Positions 19,914 to 21,951 of a stretch of 64,000 bases of DNA are shown piece by piece (the stretch's first letter is position 1; each line of letters starts with the position of its first letter). The translations under genes and the position numbers were made by a program. This DNA comes from Spizellomyces punctatus DAOM BR117 (taxonomy: Eukaryota): NCBI GenBank assembly GCA_000182565.2, contig KQ257457.1. The stretch is one strand, 5' to 3'. The notes under the pieces are model-generated. The model worked only from the letters and a program-made list of their open reading frames with translations. It had not been told where the DNA came from and searched no databases.

Positions 19914-21951
19914 TTAGCGTGGTTCAGGTTCAATGGTCACTCCGCGTCGAATGGTACCCCATCCAATCAATCTACATCAACGAAAAATGAGCATGTGTAT
20001 CGGCGAATCTGTAAAGCTGAACAATAGAACTCACCGCCAGTGCTTCTCGATACGACGAGATAATGCAATCTTCTCTCCAATCTCAGTGCAAGCCGGGGTG
20101 TTCAATAATATCTTGGCCATGTCCGCCTTTACGCTCAACACACGTCCACCCGTTGAGGTAGAACCAATGTTCACCATGAGAACTTCATGTCGGCTGAGCT
20201 TTTGGACCTTGGTTTGCTTCTTGTCCTCGGACTTCACACCGAGAAGTCTCCGCAAAAGGAAGTAGTTAATCTCTAGCTCGGTGTAGATCGCTGGCAATTT
20301 GCCCACTGCACCAAGGACTTGGCCGACGAGACGGTCGGCACGGCAGAGAGTGGGATCAATTCTTGTACCCACACCTGGAAATAAGGCCAGATGTGAGAAC
20401 GACAAACATTTGAAGGAAAACAACCGTGTTCCAACGCACCAATCAATCCACCAGGTACCGCAAATTTAAGCTCATTGGTCTCTGCCAGCAGTGTCACAAT
20501 TCGAGAGTAGATTGGCTTGCATCGCACCTTTCCATCACTATCCTTGCTGACAATTCCAGGACGAACTTCAATCTCGTCACCGATTTTAAGCACACCACAC
20601 AAAATCGATCCACCTGCGACTCCTCCCTTGAGGTCTGCCACTTCTGCACCTGGTTTATTCACATCAAATGAACGAATGACAATCAATCGTGGGTCGGCGG
20701 TAAAGTCACGGATTGGGATGGGGATTTTCTTGACAATGTATTCATTGATGGCGTCAATGTTGTACTTCAATTGCGCAGAAATGGGAATAATCGGAGCACT
20801 GTCTGCAACAGTGCCTTTTACAAACTTCAAGATGCTCTCGTGATGTTCTTCTGCAGCGGATTCCTTGATCAAGTCAACCTTGTTTTGTAGGATGAGAATA
20901 TGCTGCAGCTTCATAATCTCGATAGCGGCCAAGTGTTCAGAAGTTTGTGGTTGGGGACAAGATTCGTTTCCAGCGATCAGGAGCAGCGCAGCATCCATGA
21001 CTGCTGCTCCGTTCAGCATAGTAGCCATAAGAATATCGTGTCCCGGACAGTCGACAAACGACACATGTCTGTTTCGTGGCACACAACCCTGTCAATTAAT
21101 GCCATAAACGAAAAACACACCGTTGGCCATTCACCTTAGTAGTCTCATTCTTCCCATGCACCCCACCCGATCACAGGGGAATCCCTCCTCCTTATCACTA
21201 CGGTACGATCGATAACATCCCGGACGTGGGCATGCTTCGCTATCGCATTTGAAGATCTATCATAAACCAAGAAAGCATGAGGTTAGATGTTGGTCTAGAG
21301 AAGCAAGGTTCACCGCCCGCGCCTTCCGCTCTCGTATCACCACTGCTTCAGGAGCCATCTGCGTATTATTGACGGCTCTTGCGTCTATCGACATCAAGTA
21401 TCCGACTGGTGCCAGCAAACTGTCTCATCACCGCGTATGGATACGAGATGGTAAGTCGGCGAGAGTAAACGTGTCCGAGCCTTACCTTTGCATTGGCATA
21501 ACCCAGCTTGATGGTAATGTTTCGCTCGAGTTCGTTCTTGAAACGGACCGTTTGCACACCAGATATAGCTTTTACCACAGTTGACTTTCCGTGAGCTACA
21601 TGCCCGATGGTACCTGTGTCAGACATAAAGAAGTGCAGTGAGTACACAAATCTTTCGACTGATCAAGCAATCCCATCCCATCTACATCTTGAAAGATTAT
21701 GCACTGCATCAGGGCCGACCAGCGTATTATTTGCGGCCATGCATAGACATCGTCATGTATATTCCGACTGGTGCCAGCAAAAAGACTCATCAGAGCGAGT
21801 GCATCTTCCCCAAGTCTGTCTACCCATCCATGCCATCCCCTCCCATTTGTTTCTCACGAGAAAGCTTACCGATATTGATGGTAGCTTGTCGAGAAATGAC
21901 TTCTGGGGATAGAGGATTGAGTTGCGTTACGTCAATATCTATAGCCGCCAT
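19914..21951 (-). CDS. GCD11: Translation initiation factor eIF2 gamma subunit, multi-exon
   Basis: [71 protein letters not shown]. Confidence 0.97.
21341..21440 (-). ncRNA. Intronic box C/D snoRNA (eIF2-gamma intron 2); predicted guide for 18S Gm562 (yeast numbering)
   Basis: Box C GUGAUGA (21425-21431), guide GCUGGCACCAG complementary to 18S CUGGUGCCAGC, D' CGGA, box D CUGA (21348-21351); flanking complementary CTCGTAT/ATACGAG stem. Confidence 0.8.
21699..21804 (-). ncRNA. Intronic box C/D snoRNA paralog (eIF2-gamma intron 1); same 18S guide
   Basis: Box C UGAUGA (21787-21792), identical guide GCUGGCACCAG-U-CGGA, box D CUGA (21709-21712); terminal stem ATGCACT/AGTGCAT. Confidence 0.8.

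Follow-up and report, generated by a model that had tools for sequence, protein, structure and literature searches.

The minus strand of a 64,000-nucleotide (nt) stretch of Spizellomyces punctatus DAOM BR117, contig KQ257457.1 (here called the window), carries an eIF2-gamma gene whose first two introns each contain a candidate box C/D small nucleolar RNA (snoRNA). The gene was recognized by the domains PF00009, PF03144, and PF09173 in a 208-residue piece of its product, and the best named match of that piece is Phlyctochytrium arcticum, at 97% identity. Exon 1 (21870..21951, with the ATG at 21951) joins exon 2 (21486..21613) in frame, exon 2 encodes the GHVAHGKST loop, and the frame is carried on through exon 3 (21135..21256) into exon 4, which begins at 21068. 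Intron 1 (21614..21869; GT..AG) is the host of snoRNA copy 1, and intron 2 (21257..21485) is the host of copy 2. A 938-nt contig of run X5 (depth 430, 0 differences) covers exon 1, supports exons 2 and 3 together with the translation, and skips exactly 21257-21485 and 21614-21869; its spliced form suggests that it is complementary DNA-like. An initial annotation, made from the letters alone, had claimed twin box C/D snoRNAs in introns 1 and 2 of eIF2-gamma and had called both introns unusually long. Both claims hold up: all elements lie on the minus strand, the introns are spliced in the X5 contig, the host is chytrid-like, and the introns measure 256 and 229 nt versus 66 nt for intron 3.

The two snoRNA copies share one layout. 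Box C is followed by a short variable spacer, by UUUGCUGGCACCAGU and then CGGA, by a candidate box C', by a variable stretch of ~11-12 nt, and by a hairpin whose 3' strand runs into CUGA. Common to both are box C, a D' guide of 13 base pairs (bp), box D' (CGGA), the loop motif AAUAAUACGC, and box D, with boxes, guide, and spacing identical. The copies differ in the external stem and the hairpin stem, each of which has its own sequence. Counted from box C through box D, copy 1 measures 84 nt and copy 2 measures 83 nt. The two halves of one copy are directly repeated in the other, one over 56 nt at 75% identity and one over 36 nt at 78% identity, at a distance of 361-362 nt.

Copy 1 (21708..21795; about 88-90 nt) has box C (UGAUGA) at 21787..21792, the D' guide at 21768..21780, box D' at 21763..21766, a tentative candidate box C' (UGACGA, read from the sequence) at 21750..21755, and box D (CUGA) at 21709..21712. 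Its hairpin abuts box D at 21713..21738, with a stem of GGCCG (21734-21738) and CGGCC (21713-21717) and a 16-nt loop that includes AAUAAUACGC at 21722..21731. An external stem of 7 bp is formed in the minimum free energy (MFE) fold by AUGCACU (21798..21804) and AGUGCAU (21699..21705). Copy 2 (21346..21435; about 90 nt) has box C (UGAUGA) at 21425..21430, the D' guide at 21406..21418, box D' at 21401..21404, a likewise tentative candidate box C' (UGAUGU, read from the sequence) at 21391..21396, and box D (CUGA) at 21348..21351. Its hairpin (21352..21378), found in the MFE and centroid folds, has an 8-bp stem of GAGCCGUC (21371-21378) and GAUGGCUC (21352-21359) and an 11-nt loop, and the loop motif is at 21361..21370. 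The external stem of copy 2 is an inverted repeat (I1) with 19-nt arms (21440..21458 and 21320..21338; 79% complementarity), and its 8-bp core, also present in the MFE fold, pairs CUCGUAUC (21440-21447) with GAUACGAG (21331-21338). Boxes C and D of both copies and box D' of copy 2 rest on the sequence and the Rfam alignment, and box D' of copy 1 rests on the position of CUGA in homologs and in the snR40 model; the D' of the window copies is CGGA where homologs have CUGA.

The shared elements are rare in the window. The 13-mer guide core GCTGGCACCAGTC occurs exactly twice in 64 kb versus 0.05 expected, and 0 of 100 shuffles contained two or more occurrences. The exact 10-mer loop motif occurs in the window only within the two copies; when one mismatch is allowed, there are 5 further matches, in line with chance (2.4 expected). 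Taken singly, whole-RNA fold energies are unremarkable: z is 0.27 and -1.57 when flanks are included and 0.46 and -0.92 when only the cores are folded. One further element, AUGCAUGGC at 21739-21747, is found in copy 1 only, just 5' of the hairpin and running into it. We considered this element as a ribosomal contact, as 9 nt are complementary to the 5' region of 18S (GCCAUGCAU), and rejected it: it is absent from copy 2 and within chance (~0.15 by our own estimate).

The D' guides point to a single nucleotide of 18S ribosomal RNA (rRNA). The 18S sequences that we used came from eight contaminant eukaryotic ribosomal DNA (rDNA) contigs in prokaryote assemblies, located by a pattern scan from two window motifs and confirmed with Rfam. 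The nucleotide at D'+5 (C21771 in copy 1 and C21409 in copy 2) pairs with the second G of CUGG, that is, the second G of CUGGUGCC, which is the predicted methylation target. In a complete eukaryotic 18S, the best site of the guide, shared by the two copies, is a 13-bp duplex at -3..+9 relative to the target G, with RNAduplex energies of -25.6 kcal/mol for copy 1 and -26.4 kcal/mol for copy 2; the next best sites reach -18.7 and -21.0 kcal/mol. The initial annotation had pointed the D'+5 rule at the second G of 18S CUGGUG, equivalent to yeast Gm562. That target is borne out by the duplex energies, and published accounts assign the same G to the D' guide of snR40, which directs Gm562 in helix 18 of yeast as shown experimentally (PMC4344503). 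In the fungal snoRNAome, 18S-562 is given as the best predicted target of the snR40 family, with 71 organisms (PMC5824354). A further relative, Afu-190 of Aspergillus fumigatus, is reported to have been cloned 8 times, to run at ~110 nt on a Northern blot, and to have Gm557 as its predicted target (PMC2377427).

Comparison with Rfam placed the copies near these two families at low scores. No match was found in the window at gathering thresholds. In E-value mode, copy 1 matched Afu_190 (RF01498) over the full model length at 21.1 bits (E=0.11), and copy 2 matched the same model partially at 17.1 bits (gathering score, 35). Copy 2 also matched snR40 (RF01201) at 20 bits (E=0.35; gathering score, 50), and Afu_190 and snR40 were the sole snoRNA matches of the window copies in this mode. 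Because the scores fall under the gathering thresholds, we call the copies snR40/Afu-190-like by guide and architecture and not as certified by a model. The window guide core is identical to the Afu_190 consensus. We conclude that the identity of the copies as snoRNAs and the choice of target are highly probable; family and target are supported by comparison, and the methylation itself is predicted.

A close relative constrains the same segments. A single contig of run X11 (roughly 93 to 95% identity) spans the entire region compared and differs over 759 nt by 42 letters and 12 gaps. Intron 2 has 17 changes, and all of them lie outside the 90 nt of copy 2, where 6.7 were expected (P=0.0002). 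Intron 1 has 21 changes; copy 1, with an expectation of 7.2, contains only two of them (P=0.01), and these two sit in the spacer that separates box C from the guide. Over the 761 nt compared, no segment free of changes is longer than 21341-21451, which comprises copy 2 and its stem arms; the third longest such segment is 21684-21777, and exon 1 is the other of the top three. Loss of the motifs in relatives had been named by the initial annotation as a finding that would speak against the snoRNAs, and in this relative copy 2 is unchanged and copy 1 is changed in its spacer only.

Several observations concern the host gene and its transcripts. The eIF2-gamma record of P. arcticum (350 amino acids) starts at MGRMRLL, inside exon 3, and is without the residues of exons 1 and 2, the GTP-binding P-loop included; its gene call was probably misled by the long snoRNA-bearing introns. 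Runs X6 and X7, soil metatranscriptomes of different studies, each contain an identical 262-nt contig (21463-21724) of unspliced exon 2 with intron flanks. That contig has one difference from the window (A>C at 21478), begins, on the minus strand, within the loop of copy 1, and shows neither a mature snoRNA nor splicing.

Homologs were sought in metagenomes with a pattern of box C plus the guide core, which returned at least 110 loci and is not a census. From the matches listed and the window, 68 distinct candidates were extracted, and four were dropped as probable chance matches (L068, L093, L101, and L104). What follows on homologs holds among the matches listed. Sixty-one of the at least 110 loci adjoin a gene with an Aha1_N domain, at 55 to 85% identity to the exon of locus L074 (the self-match of L074 excluded), and the linkage of an Afu_190-type snoRNA with an Hsp90 cochaperone (Aha1-type) gene is conserved. 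In most of the Aha1-linked loci, box D' is followed by GACUUGUACUC and box C' by AGCUUUGC, and a hairpin, short and variable, lies 0 to 7 nt before box D. No eIF2-gamma match adjoining a snoRNA was found by tblastn (E, 1e-3) at any of the at least 110 loci, and so hosting by eIF2-gamma is not shown to be conserved.

Three Aha1-linked homologs connect the window copies to Afu_190. L102 (48.6 bits), L012 (44.2 bits), and L074 (43.6 bits) exceed the Afu_190 gathering score, and each has a 7-bp hairpin against box D, unbroken in L102 and with one bulge in L012 and L074. Among them, the loops AAUACGCUA, AUAAUACGC, and AUUACGC are found. Because these homologs pass the threshold and have the hairpin-plus-loop architecture of the window, they link the window copies to the family. 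A UACGC-loop hairpin against box D, with unrelated stems, is also present in L013, L090, L086, and L020. The neighbor of L013 is 96% identical to a Malassezia caprae protein, L090 lies beside a related methyltransferase gene, L020 lies beside a class II tRNA synthetase gene, and L086 lies beside an RNase Z-like gene whose best named matches are diatoms (60 to 66% identity). In all, the UACGC core is found in 14 of 64 rows, which comprise the window copies and loci beside four different neighbor genes. At L086:206-739, three tandem snoRNA copies spaced about 210 to 225 nt apart lie upstream of the RNase Z-like gene; L086 retains the guide, the hairpin against box D, and a UAUACGC loop in a neighborhood outside the fungi.

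The likeness to Afu-190 and to snR40 is partial in each case. With Afu-190, the window shares the D' guide core GCUGGCACCAGUC and a guide site that matches the predicted target Gm557 (PMC2377427), a single functional guide, and, through L102, L012, and L074, a hairpin that abuts box D and has (A)AUACGC or AUUACGC as its loop. Unlike Afu-190, the window has two copies, they lie in eIF2-gamma introns and not beside an Aha1-type gene, their scores of 21.1 and 17.1 bits fall short of the threshold (35), and neither of the elements GACUUGUACUC and AGCUUUGC, known from the Aha1-linked members, is present. With snR40 (family CD_43 of the fungal snoRNAome), the window shares a D' guide that selects 18S G562, experimental for snR40 (PMC4344503), and a box D' at the same distance after CCAGU. 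The snR40 guide is reported also to reach Gm1271, and its D guide to direct 25S Um898 (PMC4344503), whereas in the window RNAs a hairpin takes the place of the D guide, and only the 562 site is matched perfectly by the guide. The score against snR40 likewise stays at 20 bits versus a threshold of 50.

The hairpin recurs where the second guide would be. In 10 of 10 rows tested, the 3' strand of a helix ends at the base before CUGA and the helix encloses UACGC, and the stems share no sequence. The evidence consists of helices and shuffles for each sequence, as MAFFT alignments anchor on UACGC and CUGA and the stems fall in different registers. Stems of 8 bp in copy 2 (P=0.004), 9 bp in L090 (P=0.002), 7 bp in L013 (P=0.022), and 7 bp in L102 (P=0.034) exceeded shuffled sequence. 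The remaining stems measured 6 bp in two rows of L086 (P=0.19 and 0.17), 5 bp in copy 1 (P=0.20), 5 bp in L020 (P=0.31), 4 bp in L074 (7 bp with one bulge; P=0.33), and 3 bp in L012 (7 bp with one bulge; P=0.75). Single-sequence folding of the last 45 nt was significant (P<=0.03) in just 4 of 12 rows. The initial annotation had described a covarying hairpin with different stems and the same loop in the two copies; such a hairpin was found in both and, by the same helices and shuffles, recurs with further unrelated stems in homologs of other lineages.

How the loop might act is suggested by a complement in 18S rRNA. All eight eukaryotic 18S sequences have a single GCGUAU, which in each of them lies 33 nt 3' of the target G, and variant 18S forms CCAACAGCG and CCACUAGCG are found among the rDNA contigs examined. 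In the window, AUACGCU of the copy 1 loop is complementary to +32..+38. In a complete 18S, the best duplex falls at +26..+40 for 7 of 9 loops, and that of the L090 loop falls at +44..+75. Homologs have longer complementarity at the same place, with 11 bp in L013 (18S CCAAUAGCGUA), 9 bp in L090, 8 bp in L102, and 7 bp in L086, and the extensions of L013, L090, and L102 run in the directions predicted by the rRNA sequence. The 24-nt loop of L090 (L090:1456-1566, minus strand) has 9 nt complementary to +33..+41 and 11 nt complementary to +42..+52, and since these blocks are in swapped order, they cannot form a single continuous helix with 18S. The initial annotation had proposed that AUACGC could pair with 18S GCGUAU just downstream of helix 18, as an accessory guide or chaperone contact. 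This predicted pairing gains comparative support from the position of GCGUAU at +33 in all eight sequences and from the three homologs that extend to 8, 9, and 11 bp; the 6 to 7 bp of the window itself are no stronger than the best chance site in an unrelated rRNA fragment.

A comparable arrangement is known from yeast. Extra base-pairing elements of 4 to 11 bp are described beside the rRNA target, in an unused second guide region or in a loop (as in snR70), and such accessory guides are reported to raise methylation two- to fivefold in yeast (PMC3116282; PMC5389607). The snoRNAs of this kind (snR70, snR75, snR76, U18, and snR13) resemble the window copies in having a conserved nonguide element complementary to rRNA near the methylation site (PMC3116282), in the same kinds of position. 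They differ in that the window element sits in the loop of a hairpin abutting box D and in that its predicted rRNA site is 33 nt off and across helix 18 instead of immediately adjacent. The extra pairing described for snR40 itself concerns the 1269/1271 region (PMC3116282).

Two sets of homologs depart from the hairpin loop. Aha1-linked loci such as L023, L055, and L078 have a conserved element, UUGUACUC(AU), in the segment that separates box D' from box C'. This element can form at most 10 bp with 18S (AU)GAGUACAA, a site some 50 nt 5' of the target G, and it may be a different accessory guide of Aha1-linked lineages. In L052:4265-4353 and L069:865-981, there is no hairpin, and the UACGC motif lies right against a box-D-like element: AAUACGCAAU runs into CCGA in L052, and in L069, UACGC overlaps CUGA by the C with which CUGA starts. 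This arrangement is a hint that a genuine second guide could be the ancestor of the loop. Assignment of L052 to snoZ221/R21b was considered and rejected, as the match is weak (29.4 bits versus 44) and the consensus guide of snoZ221/R21b differs.

Taken together, the best explanation overall is that the window encodes a paralogous pair of intronic box C/D snoRNAs, of the snR40/Afu-190 kind and with an accessory loop on 18S, to which we give a probability of roughly 0.6. Within it, pairing of the loop with 18S seems slightly better than an even bet, and an accessory guide is the best-supported reading of the loop, both predicted from complementarity. A number of results weigh against the explanation. 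Concerning the RNAs, both window copies stay under the Rfam gathering scores; the single contig inside intron 1 (190 nt, depth 3.5) exceeds snoRNA length, and a mature ~90-nt RNA was not seen among contigs. Concerning the hairpin, 6 of the 10 single-row stem P values were not significant (L020, L074, copy 1, L012, and both L086 rows), and in most Aha1-linked homologs, the hairpin persists with short, unconserved loops. Thus, the hairpin can exist without an antisense loop. Concerning the pairing, the 18S sequences belong to unrelated eukaryotes and not to this organism, and the match of the window loops, AUACGC(U), is short (6 bp at -8.3 kcal/mol in copy 2 and 7 bp at -10.2 kcal/mol in copy 1). 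The best 18S site of the copy 1 loop is elsewhere, at +173 (-12.6 kcal/mol versus -10.2 locally), and the best site in an unrelated 2.6-kb large-subunit (LSU) fragment is equally good, at -8.3 and -11.4 kcal/mol. Moreover, contiguous pairing at +33 accounts neither for the conserved AAUA 5' of AUACGC nor for the UACGCAA variant (L019, L020, L052, and L090). The eight rDNA contigs (small subunit [SSU], 5.8S, and partial LSU) contain no complement to AAUACGC of 7 nt or more, and in the same contigs, neither loop complements of 7 to 10 nt nor complements of the UACGCAA variant were found.

Several of these points would be expected if the methylation guides were real and the hairpin were merely architectural, serving to shorten the unused second-guide region and preserve the C'-to-D spacing, with the loop conserved for, e.g., a contact with a small nucleolar ribonucleoprotein (snoRNP) protein or for assembly. 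The persistence of the hairpin with short, unconserved loops in most Aha1-linked homologs fits such a role, as do a spacer of about 10 to 13 nt between box C' and the hairpin in the lineages compared and a UACGC end nearly fixed at 8 to 9 nt from box D in six sequences. The window-18S duplex is also weak and not unique, and the conservation of AAUA and UACGCAA is not explained by 18S pairing. A purely architectural role sits poorly, however, with a 5- to 6-nt core that is kept across chytrid, Malassezia-like, Aha1-linked, and diatom-like loci while the stems vary, which argues for a sequence-specific partner. The loop complement is also found 33 nt from the methylation site in every one of the eight 18S sequences, and L013, L090, and L102 extend the complementarity as 18S predicts. 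We therefore regard an architectural hairpin as somewhat unlikely.

If the loop has a sequence-specific partner, that partner might be a different RNA, such as another site in rRNA or a pre-rRNA spacer, a small nuclear RNA, a snoRNA, or an mRNA, and the 18S match at +33 would be coincidental. By our own estimate, a 6-mer complement would occur by chance within about 60 nt on either side of the target at ~3%; the conserved flanking bases do not fit 18S, and the rRNA examined covers only part of the LSU and none of the spacers of this organism. A coincidence would have to accommodate the extensions of 11 bp in L013 and 9 bp in L090, as well as the further 11-bp block of L090 at +42..+52, which share one stretch of 18S, and the SSU, 5.8S, and partial LSU sequences examined offer no longer complement. 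A different partner RNA thus appears improbable. Finally, that the loop is an active or decayed canonical D guide for a second methylation around 18S +33..+38 is very improbable, for although the hairpinless L052 and L069 place the motif beside a box-D-like element, their elements stop matching 18S beyond 5 to 6 bp, and in the window the 5 to 8 nt upstream of box D sit in an intramolecular stem so that the fifth position cannot pair with 18S.

Returning to paralogous snoRNAs with an accessory loop, we propose the following mechanism. After splicing of the eIF2-gamma pre-mRNA, each snoRNA would be trimmed out of its intron, and the flanking external stems would bring box C and box D together; we infer these steps because they are established for intronic snoRNAs without a terminal stem. 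The D' guide would form 13 bp with 18S, placing the second G of CUGG, the helix 18 equivalent of yeast Gm562, five pairs from box D', and the snoRNP methyltransferase would 2'-O-methylate that G. This part of the proposal follows from the established D'+5 rule and the yeast snR40 experiment. The 3' half would be without a methylation guide and, about 10 to 12 nt past box C', would fold into the hairpin that runs straight into box D and presents the loop (A)AUACGC(U), most likely as an accessory guide. Were the loop to pair with GCGUAU, 33 nt 3' of the target, the snoRNP would grip the rRNA on both sides of helix 18, and that grip could stabilize docking or hold the segment unfolded until release.

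The loop may also interfere with a pairing within 18S itself. Nucleotides 26 to 32 of 18S (AUAUGCU) pair with the AGCGUAU segment, and the copy 1 loop reads AUACGCU. This pairing corresponds to helix 3, which comes just after helix 18 and by which the 5' domain is closed, and the loop could delay that closure. Perhaps, then, the loop is an ancient second antisense element of the snoRNA family, older than the fungi, that mimics the usual partner of AGCGUAU, the 5'-terminal 18S strand, and that adds a chaperone role to methylation. The loop is found here at chytrid, Malassezia-like basidiomycete, Aha1-linked ascomycete-type, and diatom-like loci. With the D' guide acting alongside the loop, the snoRNP would hold helix 18 from its two flanks and set the moment at which the 5' domain closes, and the chaperone role would later have been lost in most Aha1-linked lineages. 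We hold this extension tentatively, as a possibility that we would not favor on present comparisons.

The kind of snoRNA, its target, and the principle of extra base pairing are already published, and the advance is modest. In the main texts of the literature, which were the scope of our search, we found no description of the chytrid eIF2-gamma intron pair, nor of a loop that a hairpin presents next to box D, nor of how widely this loop is distributed. The snoRNA content explains two unusually long introns in a conserved gene. Moreover, a snoRNA family with a proven yeast target is extended to a chytrid and, via metagenomic homologs, to basidiomycete-like and diatom-like neighborhoods. With one conserved loop, many stems, and an rRNA site that brackets helix 18 of the decoding center, the family offers a natural test case for accessory guides. 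Ultimately, if the loop pairs as predicted, a methylation snoRNP could also hold a folding intermediate of the small subunit.

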